Shown here one piece after another: positions 7,334-49,142 of a DNA stretch of 64,000 nucleotides; the stretch's first letter is position 1; each line of letters opens with the position of its first letter. Made by a program: the position numbers and the translations under genes. This stretch comes from Escherichia phage vB_EcoM_TH18, in sequence record ON075799, one strand, 5' to 3'. The notes beneath the pieces are model-generated. The model made no database searches and was not told where the DNA came from. It was given only the letters and a program-made list of their open reading frames with translations.

Positions 7334-7410
7334 ACGAGAGTGAGGAATAGAACCTCTTAGTCACTGGTTTTGGAGGCCAGCCTTCACCCAGTGAAGTTAC
7401 GCTACTCTCA
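7334..7410 (-). tRNA. non-canonical tRNA-like element
   Basis: Good acceptor (TGAGAGT/ACTCTCG) and T-loop-like GGTTCTATTCC, but D and anticodon regions do not fold into standard arms; no encoded CCA. Confidence 0.3.
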
Positions 7411-7417
7411 TTAAAAA

Positions 7418-7975
7418 CTATTTTCGAAAAGGACTTATGAAAAATGCCAACATCACTCTCTCTCTTGAAAAAGCTCTGTCTTCAGGAACCACACTCTTCA
7501 GTTTCCAACCGACATAAATTCGCCAGTAAAATTGTTTTCCAAACAATCTAAAAGACGGGACAAACGCGAATACACCCCACGCATTGTCATTCCACATCAA
7601 CAAATAGCCTTGTTGGTTATCCTCCACATCAGAGCTTACATGGAGGTTTCCTTTCCACTTTGTCACAGATGTGATTTCACGTCCAAGTACGTGATAGGAG
7701 AAATTGTAGGCTTTATTTCTCCACAACCAAGCAACTCGTTGTAGGTAAACACCAAAACTTCCTATTTTACGGACTTCTTCCCATCTCTCTATGTGTCCTC
7801 TATCACCGTCTATAGGATTATCATATGTCTCCATCCACCTGAAAATATAAGGCAGATGCCCTGTCTTCTCATTATAGAACGGAACAACAAAAGGAGCCAG
7901 AATAACACAGAGAACCGACATAACTGGGTCAAGAGGTGCTAACAGGATCCACGATAAATATTTTAAGTATCTCAT
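7418..7975 (-). CDS. hypothetical protein (185 aa, hydrophobic N-terminus)
   Basis: ORF from six-frame track; start overlaps stop of upstream gene (ATGA). Confidence 0.5.
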   Translation of the reverse strand: MRYLKYLSWILLAPLDPVMSVLCVILAPFVVPFYNEKTGHLPYIFRWMETYDNPIDGDRGHIERWEEVRKIGSFGVYLQRVAWLWRNKAYNFSYHVLGREITSVTKWKGNLHVSSDVEDNQQGYLLMWNDNAWGVFAFVPSFRLFGKQFYWRIYVGWKLKSVVPEDRAFSRERVMLAFFISPFRK

Positions 7976-8407: not shown

Positions 8408-8483
8408 TGGTGGGAGTGGTAGGCTCTGCCCCTACGTCCTCTCGATTATCGGTCGAGCGATCTACTAACTGATCTACACTCCC
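8408..8483 (-). tRNA. tRNA-like cloverleaf with Ile-type anticodon GAU but non-canonical D and T loops and C at position 33
   Basis: All four stems perfectly paired, CCA encoded, but D loop AGTTAGTA lacks GG, T loop is GGCAGAG (no TTC), anticodon loop is CCGATAA. Confidence 0.5.
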
Positions 8484-15382: not shown

Positions 15383-15452
15383 CGAGAATGCTACTCATAA
15401 CACCACACAATGTCAACCCCTCCCATATGTCCCCATTTCAGGGACATTATGA

Positions 15453-15540
15453 TCTAATATAATATATATTATATAATATAATTTAATATAATACTACGTA
15501 TTATATATATTATAATATATATATATAATTTATATAAAAT
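15453..15540. repeat. AT-only low-complexity repeat tract (TA/ATA-type)
   Basis: ~90 nt of taatataatatatattatataatataatttaatataat... between divergent gene blocks. Confidence 0.8.
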
Positions 15541-15640
15541 ACACTAAGTCTTGAAGAATGTCAAGACTTGATTTTAAATATTTTTGTTGATATGATTCGA
15601 TTGAGTCGAATCGTATGGTTCGATGATTTCGAATCATAGA
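15541..15640. promoter_or_regulatory. cluster of palindromes at the divergent intergenic region
   Basis: agtcttga-agaatg-tcaagact, gattcga-ttgag-tcgaatc and atgattTCGAAtcat dyads next to the AT tract. Confidence 0.5.
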
Positions 15641-17827: not shown

Positions 17828-18064
17828 TTTAAGGGGGAGTGTTGAGAAGCATTGCGTATTACAAATTCAAATGTTGGGAGAAACTCTATGATTTGAGCTA
17901 CCTTATTTTTGGGAATCTCCCTGTCACTGAAGACATTAAACACAAAATGTATCTTTCATACATGAAATACCGTCTCCACGAAAGAAAGAGTGGTTGATGA
18001 GAATGTTATAATGCCCTGTAGAGAGTGTCTACAGGGCTTTAATGCTTAATCACAGGACTTACCA

Positions 18065-18895
18065 ATGACAAGTATTTTACACACGACAGGTATTTTACCA
18101 CACTATCAGAAGGAATATTCTTTCCCTGATTTATCTGGGGATATGTTGCAAATATACGACAAAGTGCAAGGCGAAGTGTCGGAGCTACAATTTAGTTCAG
18201 ACCCTGATGATGAGCAAGAGTTTGATAAACAGATTTGTCGTGTAGAAAACGAGCTTATAGAGCTACAATCATTAGCCAAATCAACAGATATCGAAGACTT
18301 AAGGCGACACGTTGAGAATCTTGAAAATTTAGTGTTCGGGCTTTCGCAAGCTATTATAAACATTGGTGAAATTGCTAAAATTGCCTCTGACAAGTTGCCA
18401 GACAACACAGAAGATATTGAAGAAGCGTTGCAGAATATCTGCTATGAAGGAAGTTCTGCTCTCGGTTGTGAATGTAATCTAGGAAATGCTCTTGAAGAGC
18501 GTGGGTGGAACCTGTTCCAAAAAACTTTTGTTTATCGTGTTATTGGTGGTGAGTTTCCTCGGCTCATACAACTTAATGCCCTTTTTGGAAACAGCCAGGG
18601 TGATAATATTGCATTAGGTATTGATGGCTGGTTCTGTTTAAGAGGTAAAGAATTAGCATTTTGTTGTGGCGATGATGTGTTAATTCTCAATGCTTATAAA
18701 CCAGGTGTTGAAATAACAACAAAATTAAATGGTAAGTCCACTAAATTTCACACCAGAGAGTTGGAAGATATTTTCATGGACATATTTGATCCTACAGAAG
18801 ACGAAATTCTTATGTATGAAATGACCAGTGGAAAAAGATATGATATTTTGTCGTGGAGAAATATTTTTGGCAAGAAGAGAAAGCCTGTAGCGTGA
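18065..18895 (+). CDS. hypothetical acidic protein (276 aa)
   Basis: Long ORF from six-frame track on the plus strand. Confidence 0.55.
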   Translation: MTSILHTTGILPHYQKEYSFPDLSGDMLQIYDKVQGEVSELQFSSDPDDEQEFDKQICRVENELIELQSLAKSTDIEDLRRHVENLENLVFGLSQAIINIGEIAKIASDKLPDNTEDIEEALQNICYEGSSALGCECNLGNALEERGWNLFQKTFVYRVIGGEFPRLIQLNALFGNSQGDNIALGIDGWFCLRGKELAFCCGDDVLILNAYKPGVEITTKLNGKSTKFHTRELEDIFMDIFDPTEDEILMYEMTSGKRYDILSWRNIFGKKRKPVA

Positions 18896-19158
18896 TATTT
18901 TATCACTGATATTTGTTTTCCCTGTGATATTTTTGTCACAGGGAAAGTTTCAATAGTGGATATTTTCTTGATACTTTAAATTCCTACCAGAAATTTAAAT
19001 TCTGTAAATTTAGAAAACTATTACTTATAGGCGTTTCGACACAATTTTGTTATGAAAGCCTTGTTTTTATATAAAAACCTGTTTTAGCATGGGTGGTAGG
19101 ATCACACTCCATACTACCTTTATTCCTACAGATGAGCATCTCCATGTTCGAAAACTCG

Positions 19159-19370
19159 GTTCTCGATCGAAAATTCATTTTCCAGATCGTATTTGCTCCT
19201 TACGGAGAAAATTTTTTAGGGCTACAAGTTTCAGTTCTCGATCGGTTTTTCGATTTCAAAATCGTATTTGTTTTTTCTTGCGAAATTTTTCGCACGCTCA
19301 GTTCTCGATCGAGTTTTCAAAATCGAAATCGTATTTGCTCTATAGTGCGAAAAAATTTTTATGGGTATCA
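19159..19370. repeat. three tandem ~67-75 bp repeats with internal dyads
   Basis: Units begin gttctcgatcg at ~19159, 19234, 19301 and share ...atcgtatttg...gcgaaa; internal palindrome tgcgaaatttttcgca. Confidence 0.75.
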
Positions 19371-19742
19371 TAATTCTATCACACACTTAAACGCAAAGCA
19401 ACATAAAAATTTTTGTTGAATGATAATCATTCTCATTTGCAGAATGACAGGTAGGATCAGTGTCTTATCCTCCCCCGTTGACCATCGTCGCCGTAGTTTG
19501 AAGTTTATAGCCGTTCTCGGCTTATCTCTTTGTTAGAGATAGATTACCATAATTGATAAAGAAAGCAAGCGTTAATTGTAATCTTTACGTTTCTTTACAA
19601 ATTTATTTTAGACAAACTACCGGCGATCGACCTTCCAACCAGCGCCCTGGTATGTTAGCCCCGCCTTTACGCCGTGGGGATGGCGTTGCCTCTTCTGTAT
19701 GTTAGGCATTATAAGCCCAATCCCTGGGCTTGTCAAACATTT

Positions 19743-20006
19743 TTATTTATTTTCTTGCCAGGTTAGGACACCTAACCAGAAATGGCAATCACCTTTCGCC
19801 CATTGTGGTATATTGCTTTCTTTCCCACCTTCCCGCGCCCAGGAATAACCGCCCGTGTAACTTTGTAATTGATAACTATCCTCGACCTTATAATCTGACA
19901 GGTTGAGAACTGTTTCTACCTTTAAGCCTGTTGCGCTCGCTACCTGGTGGATAGTTCCCCCTTGCCAGCCTAACGCGTGCATAAGGTGCATTGTGGTAGT
20001 GGTCAT
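19743..20006 (-). CDS. hypothetical protein (87 aa)
   Basis: ORF from six-frame track with gagga RBS upstream on the minus strand; isolated between plus-strand blocks. Confidence 0.45.
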   Translation of the reverse strand: MTTTTMHLMHALGWQGGTIHQVASATGLKVETVLNLSDYKVEDSYQLQSYTGGYSWAREGGKESNIPQWAKGDCHFWLGVLTWQENK

Positions 20007-20185: not shown

Positions 20186-20809
20186 ATGAAAACCATTGTT
20201 AACGCTGAGAATGTATCTTTCGATAAGTTGAACGACGCACAAAAAGAAAAAGCCATTGATCTTATTCGTGAGCGTGAAAGAGAAAGCGCCGATAATTTCT
20301 TTGCGGATAGTGTCATTGAAGACTATAAGAATGACATTTTACCAGAGTACGGGATCGATGACGCGGTTATCTATTGGTCAGGATTCTGGTCGCAAGGCGA
20401 CGGCGCATCTATCAGCACTGATCGCGTGGATATTGAAAAATTTTTAAGAAAAGTTAAATCTTTAACAAAATTTAGAGGTATCCGCAAACTATTTGATCTT
20501 GGTGAATATAGTCAGTTATACGCAAGCATTGAGCGGGATAATTACAGCCGCTACCATCATGAAAATACTGTTTCCGGTTACGTTGAAACTATGTATTGTG
20601 GTGATTTAACGGCAAAACAGGAAGATCTAGCCAATCAGCTTGAAAACTTGTTAACTGAAACGATCCGCGATCTGTCTTGTAAACTTTACAGAGATTTAGA
20701 ATCAGCCTATGATGACCAGTTTACAGATGAAGCCATCACCGAATCAATTGAAGCCAATGATTATCGTTTTGATATTGATGAAGATGGAGAAGTTTACGCT
20801 ATCGCTTAA
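20186..20809 (+). CDS. hypothetical acidic protein (207 aa)
   Basis: ORF with RBS aaaggggtaaatcaat-ATG and own promoter. Confidence 0.6.
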   Translation: MKTIVNAENVSFDKLNDAQKEKAIDLIRERERESADNFFADSVIEDYKNDILPEYGIDDAVIYWSGFWSQGDGASISTDRVDIEKFLRKVKSLTKFRGIRKLFDLGEYSQLYASIERDNYSRYHHENTVSGYVETMYCGDLTAKQEDLANQLENLLTETIRDLSCKLYRDLESAYDDQFTDEAITESIEANDYRFDIDEDGEVYAIA

Positions 20810-28779: not shown

Positions 28780-29165
28780 CCCTAACAAACATGATAAGTT
28801 TTATCTATCAAAACACCACACAGAAAGAAAGTGAATAAAACGCGGTATCGAGCTAAACGAGGGTGGGCAATACAACGGCAAGGCTAAACAATTAAGGCTG
28901 TTATAACGCGATTTAGGCCGCTTAAAATCGATCCCCACCACAAACAACACCCACAAAATGACCAAAACGACACAACATGACTTAAATGATAACCATTCCC
29001 AACAACATAAGCATTTTTATGCAATTTGAGTGAATATCTATTTAAATGATAATGACTCTCAACAACAAACTAACACGACCGAAGCGATTCAATCGCCTAC
29101 CACAAAATTAATCACTTGTAAAGAGTAATTTGAAAAAAGCTGCGTAGGTGGCGCGACCGTAGGGA

Positions 29166-39187: not shown

Positions 39188-40432
39188 TTAGAATAACATA
39201 TCCCTGCTAATTGCTTTACGAATAGCATCAATACGGGCTACTCGCACAGCTTCACCAATCTCTTTACCCTTCTTACCTTTTTCCAGAAGAGGGTTTGTGA
39301 TAGCTTTAGAATCAACTTTTGTCATAGCGTCATAGGCTTCCAACAAAATATGACCTTGAAGGTAAGGTTTATGCCTAAAATCACCACCTCTTCCTTTAGC
39401 ATCACAATAACATGCATCTGCAAGTGTGTAAACCTTCATTTTCTGATCAGCTTGTCCAGCAGCTTCAAATATTTTCATGATGCTTTTTGGTTTCAAACCG
39501 TTGTTACCATCTGTGGGAGAGATGGCGTGCACTTTTGTGTGATTTTCTGCAACATATTTTGCCGTGTCACGATAGATATTATAAATCTTTAACCTTTCGC
39601 ACAAAGATTGGATAACATCCGCACCAGCTTTTTCATGACCATGCAAATTACCATTGTTCTTGTAAGTTACAGCTTTGCCAAAATCATGGCAAAGCACAGC
39701 AAACTTGGTCAGTGGATCAGCTTCTAATTCATCGGCAACCCGTAACGCTAGAATTGTATGAGTGTAAGCATCCCCTTCTGGGTGGTGTTCTTTAGGTTGT
39801 TGTACACGACGCAGGGCTTCCAGTTCAGGAAGCTCGCCAATACGTCCCATATTGACAGCAAAAGATCTGAAATAATCACTCTTTAAGGCTTTCAACATTT
39901 CATTCCATTTACGCTCGGCGCTTATTTCTGCCAAAGAGTGTCGGTTGTCATAAGCCAGTTTAAAAGTCTCTGGGTGGATATGCCATTCTTCCCCAAGCTG
40001 GGCTTTAAATCTAAACAGGCGTAGAATACGTAACGGGTCTTCAATAAATGCCTGTGATGTATGACGTAATGTTTTAAGTCCTAAATCAACCTGGCCACCA
40101 AAAGGATCAATAATCTCACCACTGTCAACATCCATCGCCATGGAGTTGATGGTTAGATCTCTACGTGCCAAATCCTCTTCCAGAGTTACATCTGGGCTAA
40201 AGCATACCTCAAATCCTTTATGGCCTTCGCCTGTTTTTCTTTCTGTGCGTGCAAGAGCGTACTCTTCTTTTGTTTCTGGGTGAAGATAAACTGGAAAAGA
40301 TGCGCCAACTTGTGTGAACCCTCTTTTCAACATCTCTTCATGCGTAGCTCCAACAACAACATAATCACGGTCTGATAATTCACGACCCAATAATTTATCT
40401 CTAACCGCCCCACCTACCAAATATACCTTCAT
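39188..40432 (-). CDS. cca: tRNA nucleotidyltransferase (CCA-adding enzyme) with HD domain
   Basis: Start MKVYLVGGAVRDKLLG...DRDYVVVG (class II head) and HD-domain region; ATGA overlap with upstream stop. Confidence 0.85.
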   Translation of the reverse strand: MKVYLVGGAVRDKLLGRELSDRDYVVVGATHEEMLKRGFTQVGASFPVYLHPETKEEYALARTERKTGEGHKGFEVCFSPDVTLEEDLARRDLTINSMAMDVDSGEIIDPFGGQVDLGLKTLRHTSQAFIEDPLRILRLFRFKAQLGEEWHIHPETFKLAYDNRHSLAEISAERKWNEMLKALKSDYFRSFAVNMGRIGELPELEALRRVQQPKEHHPEGDAYTHTILALRVADELEADPLTKFAVLCHDFGKAVTYKNNGNLHGHEKAGADVIQSLCERLKIYNIYRDTAKYVAENHTKVHAISPTDGNNGLKPKSIMKIFEAAGQADQKMKVYTLADACYCDAKGRGGDFRHKPYLQGHILLEAYDAMTKVDSKAITNPLLEKGKKGKEIGEAVRVARIDAIRKAISRDMLF

Positions 40433-40701
40433 TTCTTCACCCACATGTTCATATAATTAACAATATCTTTTATGGTTCTCTTGCCGTCCAGTGGATAAAC
40501 CATGTCATCGCTCATCCCACCGTGTTTTAGCATTGCTACCAGCCTAGTATATACCCCTTTTGGTCTTTTGCAAGTTCTTTTCTTCCATTTATGACCGTCT
40601 GGGGAGTACTCCTTATCTTCAAGAGAGATATGAAGTATATCTCCTATAAACTCTTTTGCCTGTGTGCTGTAAAGTGGACGGTAGAATATGTAGAATTTCA
40701 T
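40429..40701 (-). CDS. hypothetical protein (~90 aa)
   Basis: Start tentatively MKFYIFYRPLY; stop overlaps cca start. Confidence 0.45.
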   Translation of the reverse strand: MKFYIFYRPLYSTQAKEFIGDILHISLEDKEYSPDGHKWKKRTCKRPKGVYTRLVAMLKHGGMSDDMVYPLDGKRTIKDIVNYMNMWVKK

Positions 40702-47753: not shown

Positions 47754-47985
47754 TCCCGCACCACTACGTGCTGCTGCATGTCACCATGCAGACCAGACCA
47801 TATCTTCATGCTTAAAGCATGTCTGCCGTTTGGGGTGTCATCAGCTTACACTCTACATCCCTACATTCATCAGGATTGGTCGTTAGGCATTTACGGTTGA
47901 TACCGATTTAGCACGGGATTCCCTCCATAGAGGATTCCCCCGTTTAGGCAGATTTTACATGAGCAGTTATAGTTTACCCATGCTT
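47726..47985 (-). mobile_element. putative group I intron in nrdD (no ORF; boundaries approximate)
   Basis: Non-coding insert with a 38-nt block (47755-47792) identical to one in the terminase intron (609-646); S-like agaccatatc and R-like ggtcgtta elements. Confidence 0.5.
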
Positions 47986-49142
47986 GTAACACGCCCGTCT
48001 GAAGAACCTGTTACCTTTTTATTCAACGGTACAGATATGAAATCTGGATAAATCCTTTCAACACAACACTCCATGGCTAATTGCTTTAAGTCGTAGTTGG
48101 GATCGCCAGGTTTCATGTTTACACCATCTTCCAAGAAGAAGATAACTTTTGGAAAAACAGGTGTGACTTTGTCTTTGCCAAGTCCGTTTTTGTGAACAAG
48201 AAGATAATTCTTTGTAATCATTCTCCCAAAATAGGAAGTATCAAGCCCAAGACTCAAGGTGATAAATGGGCATTGACCGTTAGCACTCATCAAGGTATTT
48301 ACCTGATAAAGCAATGTCTGCATAGCATCGTAAACATCTTTTTCCGTCATCTGCATAGCTACACCTTCTGGGTCTGGCAGCCATTGCTCCTGACAAAATT
48401 TTAGATTTTTATCGTAACTTGCCTTGGCATATTGTTTTAATCCTTCATCAATATGGGTGTATGACTGACCACCATATTGAACCGAAGAAACTGATTGGGA
48501 TATCTGGCTAAGAATGGTACAGGCAACACCTATCGATTTCGGCTTTTCTATTTTTGCATTGCCAATTTTAAAACCGTTCTCCAACATATCCCTATAATTT
48601 ACAAGACTGCAATTAGTTAATGGGCTTATCAAATAATCTAAGTCATGTATATGACCATAACCATTTGTATGCCATTCAGCCAATTCTTTTGGTAGAATTT
48701 GAGTTAGTGAGACGTGCTTGCTAAGGATACCCGCGAGAAGATCACGATGGCTACTAACCACCCCACTTGGTTTATTAGCGTTTTCTTTAGTAAATTCATC
48801 GGCAGTTTGTTCTAAGAATCCCGTAATATCTGCAAACAGTTTTCCTTTACCTTCCCTAACGTTATCACGCGTTTTACGATATTCAATATACGCCCGTGCA
48901 GCGTTCTTGAGGTCAAGATCCATTAGTGAATCTTCCACAATGCGGTGAATATCACAAACAGCCACTTTCTCTTGCGGTGGTTCTGATTTTTCCAGAGTTT
49001 CATAGGCTTGCTCGCCAACTGCACACGCCAGAGGATATGATTTCTCACCATAACCAGCAGCAATTAAAGCGGCTTCTGCCGCTTTAATAACTTTCACACC
49101 ATCATAATCTTCTTCACGCCCATCACGTTTAACAACTTTCAT
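47967..49142 (-). CDS. nrdD: anaerobic ribonucleotide reductase NrdD, 5' exon (N-terminal region)
   Basis: N-terminus MKVVKRDGREEDYDGVKVIKAAEAA (ATP-cone-like); ORF 3' end likely runs a few codons into the intron. Confidence 0.75.
   Translation of the reverse strand: MKVVKRDGREEDYDGVKVIKAAEAALIAAGYGEKSYPLACAVGEQAYETLEKSEPPQEKVAVCDIHRIVEDSLMDLDLKNAARAYIEYRKTRDNVREGKGKLFADITGFLEQTADEFTKENANKPSGVVSSHRDLLAGILSKHVSLTQILPKELAEWHTNGYGHIHDLDYLISPLTNCSLVNYRDMLENGFKIGNAKIEKPKSIGVACTILSQISQSVSSVQYGGQSYTHIDEGLKQYAKASYDKNLKFCQEQWLPDPEGVAMQMTEKDVYDAMQTLLYQVNTLMSANGQCPFITLSLGLDTSYFGRMITKNYLLVHKNGLGKDKVTPVFPKVIFFLEDGVNMKPGDPNYDLKQLAMECCVERIYPDFISVPLNKKVTGSSDGRVTSMGKL

Follow-up and report, generated by a model that had tools for sequence, protein, structure and literature searches.

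The question addressed here is what function is served by three tandem direct repeats in the early region of Escherichia phage vB_EcoM_TH18 (sequence record ON075799), of which a stretch of 64,000 nt, hereafter the window, was analysed. A previous sequence-only reading of the window had described units of approximately 70 bp with internal palindromes, placed them in a non-coding gap, and likened them to iterons or transcription factor binding arrays. In the analysis reported here, the three units are best read as an old, cis-acting, iteron-like array of composite recognition sites, which would tentatively serve a transcription-activated phage replication origin of the T4 oriE/oriF type (estimated probability approximately 0.4). 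The window belongs to an Av-05-like phage of the Vequintavirinae, i.e. an rV5-type phage of Escherichia coli. Phages of the rV5, PVP-SE1, phi92 and phAPEC8 types are widely used as candidates for therapy and biocontrol; to our knowledge, they have no known replication origin or early non-coding RNA, and no known link to the physiology of the host.

A unique three-unit array in a non-coding gap

The composite motif GTTCTCGATCG-N16-ATCGTATTTG, comprising box A and box B, was matched three times in the window without mismatch, at 19159, 19234 and 19301, against 0.00 matches expected from 100 dinucleotide shuffles, and neither box recurred elsewhere in the window at one mismatch or fewer. The unit starts, their spacing (75 and 67 nt) and the shared core motif proposed from the sequence were thereby confirmed. 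A repeat search of the gap returned a single three-copy family of direct repeats, 71 nt long with 65–73% identity between copies. Tandem Repeats Finder, which had been put forward as a check on period and copy number, left the array uncalled even at a score of 30, because the parts between the boxes have diverged. The units thus display the features of iteron-type arrays, being direct repeats in the same orientation, regularly spaced and, within the 64 kb, unique.

The gap extends over 847 nt (18896-19742), close to the approximately 850 nt first estimated, between a plus-strand open reading frame (ORF) at 18065-18895 and a minus-strand ORF at 19743-20006, with no credible gene inside it. Internal dyads are real in this sequence, including the one originally quoted (tgcgaaatttttcgca), which was located at 19279-19294, but their register shifts between units and between genera. 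The palindromes described earlier therefore stand as features of this one sequence and not as conserved elements, and, judged by comparison of the sequences, they do not constitute a conserved hairpin; the dyad that recurs is a self-complementary A5-6T5-6 tract.

Conservation of the array and its module across phages

The gap was 100% identical to those of Escherichia phages 18-1-2, 19-1-2 and 24-2-1 and approximately 95% identical to that of Av-05 (Avunavirus), while a 600-nt segment reaching from the repeats to the gap's right-hand edge was matched in 243 phage records, so that the possibility raised beforehand, of repeats unique to this genome, does not hold. A syntenic layout of a plus-strand gene, 800–1000 unannotated nt and a small minus-strand gene was seen in Av-05, KB57 and Ro1 (Mydovirus), PVP-SE1 and EspYZU12 (Seunavirus), CR9 and CB7 (Certrevirus), A73 (rV5-like), pEa55 (Henunavirus), and phi92 and phAPEC8 (Stephanstirmvirinae), and a scan of IMG/VR contributed approximately 35 extra loci. 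Exactly three units were present in 18 loci from four genera (Avuna-, Mydo-, Seuna- and Certrevirus), all with an orthologue of unit 1, an offset from box A to box B of invariably 26 nt, and unit spacings of 74–78 and 63–68 nt. In general form, box A is G[GT][TA]CTCGATCG, followed 26 nt later by box B, [AT]CGTATT[TC], and usually accompanied by an A5-6T5-6 palindrome. Features specific to units 1, 2 and 3, such as a CGG after box A that is particular to unit 2 and kept across genera, are conserved by position, and the triplication must therefore be older than those genera.

Other lineages carry an array at the same place with different boxes, which are identical across all copies within one genome: GGACTYGAGRGG ... 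AAATGGATTTTC in three copies in Henunavirus, GAACTTGAGRGGTTTTTC in four to five copies in the rV5-like phage A73, ATTATTTAAAGTTTTT ... TTTTGAAAATGAAAAG in three copies in phi92 and phAPEC8, and GGTCGTAGGATTTTTT in two copies, 170 nt apart, in a metagenomic lineage. The comparison of copy number that had been suggested earlier thus gave three in most genera and two to five in others, with variation between deep lineages only. A change of all copies at once is the pattern that would be expected if the sites co-evolve with a lineage-specific binder. Outside these phages, no similarity to the array indicative of host mimicry was found in 5,426 E. coli genomes, a plasmid search yielded a sole match of 40 nt in one phage-sized 'plasmid', and a scan of genome contigs for the composite motif returned chance singletons only.

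The array forms part of a module of approximately 850 nt, which, with its leftward early promoters (P1 to P3), Fur-box-like operator and conserved transcript, had been overlooked in the sequence-only reading. Read leftward, its order is the small ORF, P1, the conserved transcript, P2, the operator, P3, the repeats, bent A+T-rich DNA and a hairpin (Table 1). This order is fixed, parts of the module are approximately 85% identical between two subfamilies with unrelated flanking genes, and the whole was the most conserved non-coding DNA found around the early region.

Coding capacity and RNA structure of the units

Long stop-free stretches of the plus strand run across the array (ORFs 19089-19373 and 19093-19419), and some records annotate genes there, as would be seen if the repeats encoded a repeated peptide. 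Two to three plus-strand frames are open simultaneously in every genome, because the strand is T-rich and poor in stop codons; spacing differences of 1 nt between genera shift the frame in which a given invariant box would be read; no codon position within the boxes varies; and the units of 75 and 67 nt are out of phase. Among the relatives, no reading frame was preserved, nor was there a conserved start codon or ribosome-binding site. A protein-coding region was rejected on the shifting frames and the invariance of the boxes at every codon position; it is scarcely credible as an explanation, and by these comparative tests the units are non-coding. The genes annotated as 'hypothetical protein' over arrays, A73_40 (locus L008, 1036-1275) and PVP-SE1 gene 202 (locus L003, 2931-3215), are probably spurious, because their frame is not conserved.

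Folding with RNAalifold of ten diverse arrays in the minus sense gave a covariation term of -0.53 kcal/mol and compensatory change in 2 of the 25 predicted pairs, and the predicted helices consisted of the self-complementary box A paired with itself or with another copy, so that no conserved RNA structure was found in the units of these arrays. Rfam 15 returned no match in the gap, either at the gathering score or at E<=10, and none in nine homologous loci. Their uniqueness in the window sets the units apart from a general promoter motif. Their conservation is one of primary sequence, which points to sites of sequence-specific recognition, read by a factor that is itself probably sequence-specific and phage-encoded. 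Of the functions originally proposed, an iteron or protein-binding array is thus the one that best survives, given DNA that is non-coding, without conserved RNA structure, unique in the window, conserved in primary sequence and altered in its boxes in all copies together between lineages; binding itself is a prediction from these sequence properties.

Leftward promoters and the A+T-rich flank

All arrays share one orientation relative to P1, P2 and P3. P1 (AAAAATGTTTGACA-17-TATAAT, minus strand, 19749-19708) is a 12/12 match to the sigma70 consensus with an A-rich, UP-like tract upstream, and has the characteristics of the sigma70-like early promoters of the Vequintavirinae, for which a consensus AAAA(N3-4)TGTTGAC(N17)TATAAT has been described (PMC7344957). 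Its spacer holds a GC hairpin (19714-19730), and a spacer hairpin is kept in relatives with different sequences; the hairpin was considered as a plus-strand terminator and rejected, as it is the spacer of a perfect minus-strand promoter. When promoters were scored on both strands of 31 non-redundant loci, the minus strand outscored the plus strand at P1 in 29 loci and at P2, approximately 150 nt to its left, in 26. P2 is clear in most genera (e.g. TTGCAA-17-TATATT) and weak in the window. P3, with the spacing TTGCTT-17-TGaTAGAAT, has a predicted start at approximately 19366, the edge of unit 3, and its TGn and hexamer are kept in Avuna-, Mydo- and Seunavirus and, on visual inspection, in Henunavirus as well. 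The quality of the promoters and the GC skew of the core, which is inverted relative to the flanks, suggest that the repeats are transcribed, or at least traversed, leftward early in infection.

Directly beyond the repeats in this direction lies DNA that stands out in its physical properties. Positions 18780-19150 hold the second least stable 250-nt segment of the 64 kb (segment start 18780; 99.5th percentile), and 18981-19220 the second strongest periodicity of A/T tracts at 10–11 bp in the window. An A+T-rich unwinding element adjacent to the repeats, as in iteron origins, is accordingly present as a physical property only, i.e. as predicted unwinding. At the left edge of the module, GATATTTG recurs two to three times at the same place in CR9, Ro1, pEa55, EC152 and loci L026 and L037. 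Separately, approximately three copies of a short direct repeat, TATCTCAAA, were observed in the left flank of the array in Mydo-, Henuna- and Seunavirus (L009 1380-1500; L011 1220-1330; L012 ~7390-7530), and not in the window's own left flank.

A candidate transcription-activated replication origin

The reading as an origin is favoured because unique repeats in one orientation, boxes uniform within a genome but different between lineages, promoters firing through the array and a bent, meltable flank together match phage and plasmid origins that have been described. A factor would assemble on the repeats, leftward early transcription would cross them into the unwinding-prone flank, and either the transcript or the opened DNA would then start leading-strand synthesis, with the operator allowing a host signal (iron, via Fur) to gate leftward transcription. 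Were this a true origin, it would enable marker-frequency studies, replicon engineering and rational attenuation.

The closest parallels are found in T4, in which oriE combines evenly spaced direct repeats with dependence on an early promoter, the repeats being conserved in syntenic regions of related phages, while oriF and oriG pair a promoter with an A+T-rich unwinding element at which the transcript forms a priming R-loop (PMC3016281). The array shares with oriE its evenly spaced, non-coding direct repeats, its position in the early region of a large virulent myovirus and an early-type sigma70 promoter, but the T4 repeats are 12 nt long against composite units of 63–78 nt here, there is no sequence similarity, and the T4 site lies near a transcriptional divergence and compositional switch, whereas the present array does not. 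As at oriF and oriG, and at the primary origin of T7, strong promoters fire into an easily melted A+T-rich segment, with P1 (12/12), P2 and P3 all directed leftward toward 18950-19150; here, however, three tandem host-type promoters lie 200–550 nt upstream, and transcript, operator and repeats intervene. Plasmid iteron origins (RK2 oriV/TrfA, R6K gamma, P1 oriR, pSC101) likewise have same-orientation direct repeats beside an A+T-rich region and boxes that differ between lineages and are uniform within an array, but they differ from the phage locus in that no Rep- or TrfA-like gene was found here among 25 proteins, no DnaA or IHF boxes occur in the gap, and the units are three to four times longer. 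The RK2 iterons bound by TrfA (PMC3273809) have 10 consecutive bases, ACTTGAGGGG, in common with box A of rV5-like and Henunavirus phages, and only CTYGA in common with the window's own box A, a similarity that may be coincidental. A route through TrfA was dropped, the oriV match among plasmids being a relic inside a transposon.

Several observations weigh against an origin at the array. No Rep, TrfA, initiator-like or DNA-binding domain was detected with Pfam or PHROGs in the 25 neighbouring and early-region proteins (64 kb of genome), and the structure model of the 276-aa upstream neighbour, with a predicted local distance difference test (pLDDT) score of 42, was unusable. The gap holds no DnaA box (TTATNCACA, at one mismatch or fewer) and no IHF consensus (WATCAANNNNTTR), and so lacks the host-factor sites of plasmid and bacterial origins. 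At 67–75 bp, the units are far longer than classical iterons of 17–22 bp, and they are not themselves unusually unstable or phased. The transcript is only mildly G-rich, with a GC skew of +0.10 to +0.17 in most lineages, and P3 was not evident in Certrevirus or the phi92-like phages (Stephanstirmvirinae) in the scoring of 31 loci. The iterons of T4 oriE have no proven role (PMC3016281), and both binding and initiation at the present array are predicted. Lastly, the array lies 3.5 kb from the switch in GC skew and transcription at approximately 15.5 kb, where the least stable DNA is located. GC skew was rejected as an indicator of the origin, as the skew follows transcription; the segment at 15435-15590, the least stable and most A+T-rich DNA of the window, sits at the skew minimum, at the divergence of a minus-strand block (tRNA/NAPRTase) and the plus-strand early block, and is a candidate for an alternative origin or for a divergent promoter zone.

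Alternative explanations for the array

The evidence for recognition sites serves equally well for an array concerned purely with transcriptional control, in which an early or middle phage protein bound to the units would switch P1 to P3, or a rightward Fur-controlled promoter (19416-19445), on or off at the early-to-middle transition, or would halt leftward transcription short of a collision with the convergent gene upstream, with no role in replication. Such an explanation is consistent with the adjacency of the units to P3 and the operator, with a locus inside the early gene block and not at the compositional switch, and with an operator type that swaps between lineages in the manner of a regulatory input. 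The sites, however, lie 0–230 nt downstream of P3 and 300–500 nt downstream of P1 and P2, an atypical position for an activator or repressor, no coding sequence follows the small ORF on the leftward transcripts, so that no regulated target is evident, and the bent, unstable DNA next to the array is left unexplained, such that this role is considered possible and less probable than an origin. Somewhat more doubtful again is the suggestion that the units act as RNA, in which a leftward transcript, begun at P3 or read through from P1 or P2, would carry three single-stranded copies of the motif (AAUACGAU ... GAUCGAGAAC, with A- and U-rich tracts) and titrate an RNA-binding protein, as a CsrB-like sponge or a decoy for Hfq or ProQ, or else counteract a defence protein of the host in the manner of ToxI. 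Conservation of primary sequence without structure would also fit recognition of single-stranded RNA, the units are co-oriented with P1 to P3, and in several genera transcription is predicted to begin at the edge of unit 3, from a conserved promoter with an extended -10; P3 is nonetheless not evident in Certrevirus and the phi92-like phages, no covariation, stable fold or Rfam family was found, and there is no toxin-like gene or processing signal nearby and no clear terminator after unit 1.

A precedent for repeat RNA exists in the relative PhiTE, which uses it against ToxIN (PMC3475682). Like the present array, the PhiTE pseudo-ToxI consists of non-coding repeats in tandem, carried by a phage of this subfamily, and it is transcribed during infection, but it occupies a different locus (phiTE_202/203, against the phiTE_078/079 gap), and its 36-nt repeats form pseudoknots, expand under selection and are similar to a host antitoxin, whereas the units here measure 63–78 nt, are structurally unconstrained, do not vary in number within a genus and lack any counterpart in the genomes or plasmids of E. 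coli. A ToxI-like antitoxin RNA was rejected, given the lack of covariation or fold, of a nearby toxin gene and of a host counterpart, and the location of the PhiTE locus elsewhere. Packaging was also considered, with the units as repeated sites for the terminase small subunit containing GATC motifs, as in P1 pac. Genomes of the group are terminally redundant and circularly permuted, in keeping with headful packaging initiated at a pac site (PMC3475682), the repeats occur nowhere else in the window and have a local excess of GATC (4 in 220 nt against 3.9 per kb), and the record of EC152 is linearised inside unit 1. Against this, the locus lies in the early region far from the structural and terminase genes, GATC is absent from the phi92-like and Henunavirus units, the ends of the EC152 record are not duplicated, and the position at which records start varies greatly from phage to phage, making a pac site very improbable. 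The related idea of a genome end or terminal repeat was discarded, the EC152 record being merely linearised within the unit.

Table 1. Positions of the repeat units and associated features in the window
Feature	Positions	Strand	Details
Module left edge	18841..18967	.	(T)GATATTT(G/T) in 4-5 copies around a perfect 11-bp hairpin (18917-18946) that directly follows the stop codon of the 276-aa gene upstream
A+T-rich, low-stability, A-tract-phased flank	18950..19158	.	Directly beyond the repeats in the direction of leftward transcription
Repeat unit 1	19159..19233		Box A GTTCTCGATCG 19159-19169; box B ATCGTATTTG 19186-19195; A4T6 tract 19208-19217
Repeat unit 2	19234..19300		Box A 19234-19244; box B 19261-19270; dyad TGCGAAATTTTTCGCA 19279-19294
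Repeat unit 3	19301..19367		Box A 19301-19311; box B 19328-19337; GAAAAAATTTTT 19349-19360
P3, extended -10 promoter	19373..19401	-	-35 TTGCTT 19401-19396; TGa 19381-19379; -10 TAGAAT 19378-19373
Fur-box-like palindrome TTGAATGATAATCATTCTCATT	19416..19437	.	15/19 to GATAATGATAATCATTATC at 19416-19434
P2, junction GCAGAATGACAGG and variable segment	19438..19574	-	~50-nt W/Av-05-specific insertion; P2 at ~19575-19540
Conserved 5' part of the P1 transcript	19575..19701	-	Candidate helices CCCC/GGGG and CGGCG/CGCCG, with a variable hairpin
P1, leftward early promoter	19708..19749	-	-35 TTGACA 19736-19731; 17-nt spacer; -10 TATAAT 19713-19708; predicted start ~19701
Small leftward ORF, 87 aa	19743..20067	-	Own promoter-like site 20067-20039

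A Fur-box-like operator between P2 and P3

Between P2 and P3 lies a palindrome of the form AATGA(G/T)AATCATTCTCATT, which in relatives matches the Fur consensus at 14–16 of 19 positions, the level of genuine sites. Positions scoring at least 15/19 to this consensus numbered 4 in the window, compared with 0.35 in shuffles; weaker look-alikes were noted at 29045 and 29869. A Fur-like box is present at this place, in one to five copies, in all the enterobacterial lineages. As in Fur-regulated enterobacterial promoters, the phage site is a 19-bp 6-6-1-6 palindrome, often in overlapping or tandem arrays (four to five in phi92; further arrays are found in relatives at L004 1325-1440 and L005 1340-1420), but the consensus of the phage sites is TGAGAAT-N-ATTCTCA, which departs from TGATAAT-N-ATTATCA at a single symmetric position. 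Asymmetries in the palindrome are uncompensated, which indicates a protein site and not a hairpin.

Phages of Escherichia, Klebsiella, Salmonella, Cronobacter, Erwinia and Pectobacterium all carry the box in identical form, although their phage-specific boxes differ, and this constancy across six host genera suggests a conserved host protein as its reader, for which Fur is the obvious candidate. In one metagenomic lineage (L026, L038, L044 and L057), an array of GTGATAGTT / AACTATCAC palindromes takes the place of the Fur-like boxes, approximately 150–260 nt upstream of the CCGGCGAT core anchor, with the GAATGACGGGCAGG junction and the core retained. The operator thus appears, from the comparison of lineages, to be an exchangeable input for host signals. 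If the Fur-like boxes are functional, this would be a case of a virulent phage reading the iron status of its host.

The conserved P1 transcript and the module as a whole

The first approximately 125 nt of the P1 transcript are approximately 85% identical even between the Vequintavirinae and the Stephanstirmvirinae (phi92/phAPEC8). In one helix, CCCC/GGGG is replaced by CCAA/UUGG in three lineages, a double compensatory change, and three independent substitutions give G.U pairs only in the minus sense, with one favouring the plus sense. The transcript is therefore put forward as a candidate for a new structured phage RNA family, possibly with a pseudoknot; its region had no Rfam match in the gap or in the nine homologous loci. 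When the right half of the gap was scanned for helices, all against all, the long-range pairs obtained were noisy and unconvincing, and a likeness, seen by eye, between the core hairpin and type I-E CRISPR repeats was dropped, as the hairpin is lost in other lineages. In Ro1, two copies of the core were observed (L009 ~1930-2050 and ~2700-2800), one of them the CCAA/TTGG variant and each with its own leftward promoter, separated by a minus-strand ORF of 197 aa, in what looks like an insertion that duplicated the element.

The repeats resemble iteron-like arrays already known; of greater interest is the module around them, in which early promoters of great strength, an operator of the host-regulator type and the iteron-like array follow one another in a fixed order. 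In a search of the literature, neither the locus itself nor Fur boxes in lytic phages of the group were found to have been described, and no transcriptome spanning the locus came to light. The module in its entirety could conceivably be an undescribed replication or regulatory hub of the Vequintavirinae and Stephanstirmvirinae, in which host iron status, through Fur or another host regulator in other lineages, would gate transcription-primed initiation at an iteron array and the P1 transcript would represent a new RNA family, although this combined proposal is regarded as speculative and rather unlikely.

Neighbouring genes and other features of the window

The small leftward ORF accompanies the module, but as two unrelated protein families. 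Its AlphaFold2 model had a pLDDT of 96.7 and gave no significant match in the PDB (434 Cro only at E=8.5). The ORF was rejected as a helix-turn-helix protein, given the lack of a significant PDB match and the failure of its two families to follow the type of either the boxes or the operator. A distant homologue has no non-coding module beside it.

Elsewhere in the window, Tandem Repeats Finder called two tandem repeats with a period of 18 nt, one at 18059-18103 (2.5 copies), which straddles the start of the 276-aa ORF, and one at 20438-20474 (2.1 copies), within the ORF 20186-20809. ARAGORN identified 16 tRNA genes on the minus strand between 5815 and 11486, to which Rfam adds one at 8411-8483, and an ORF resembling a CCA-adding enzyme lies at 39188-40444. 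A group I intron (Rfam RF00028, 79.8 bits) is present on the minus strand at 47774-48014, beside or inside an ORF (47967-49142) for an NrdD-like anaerobic ribonucleotide reductase.

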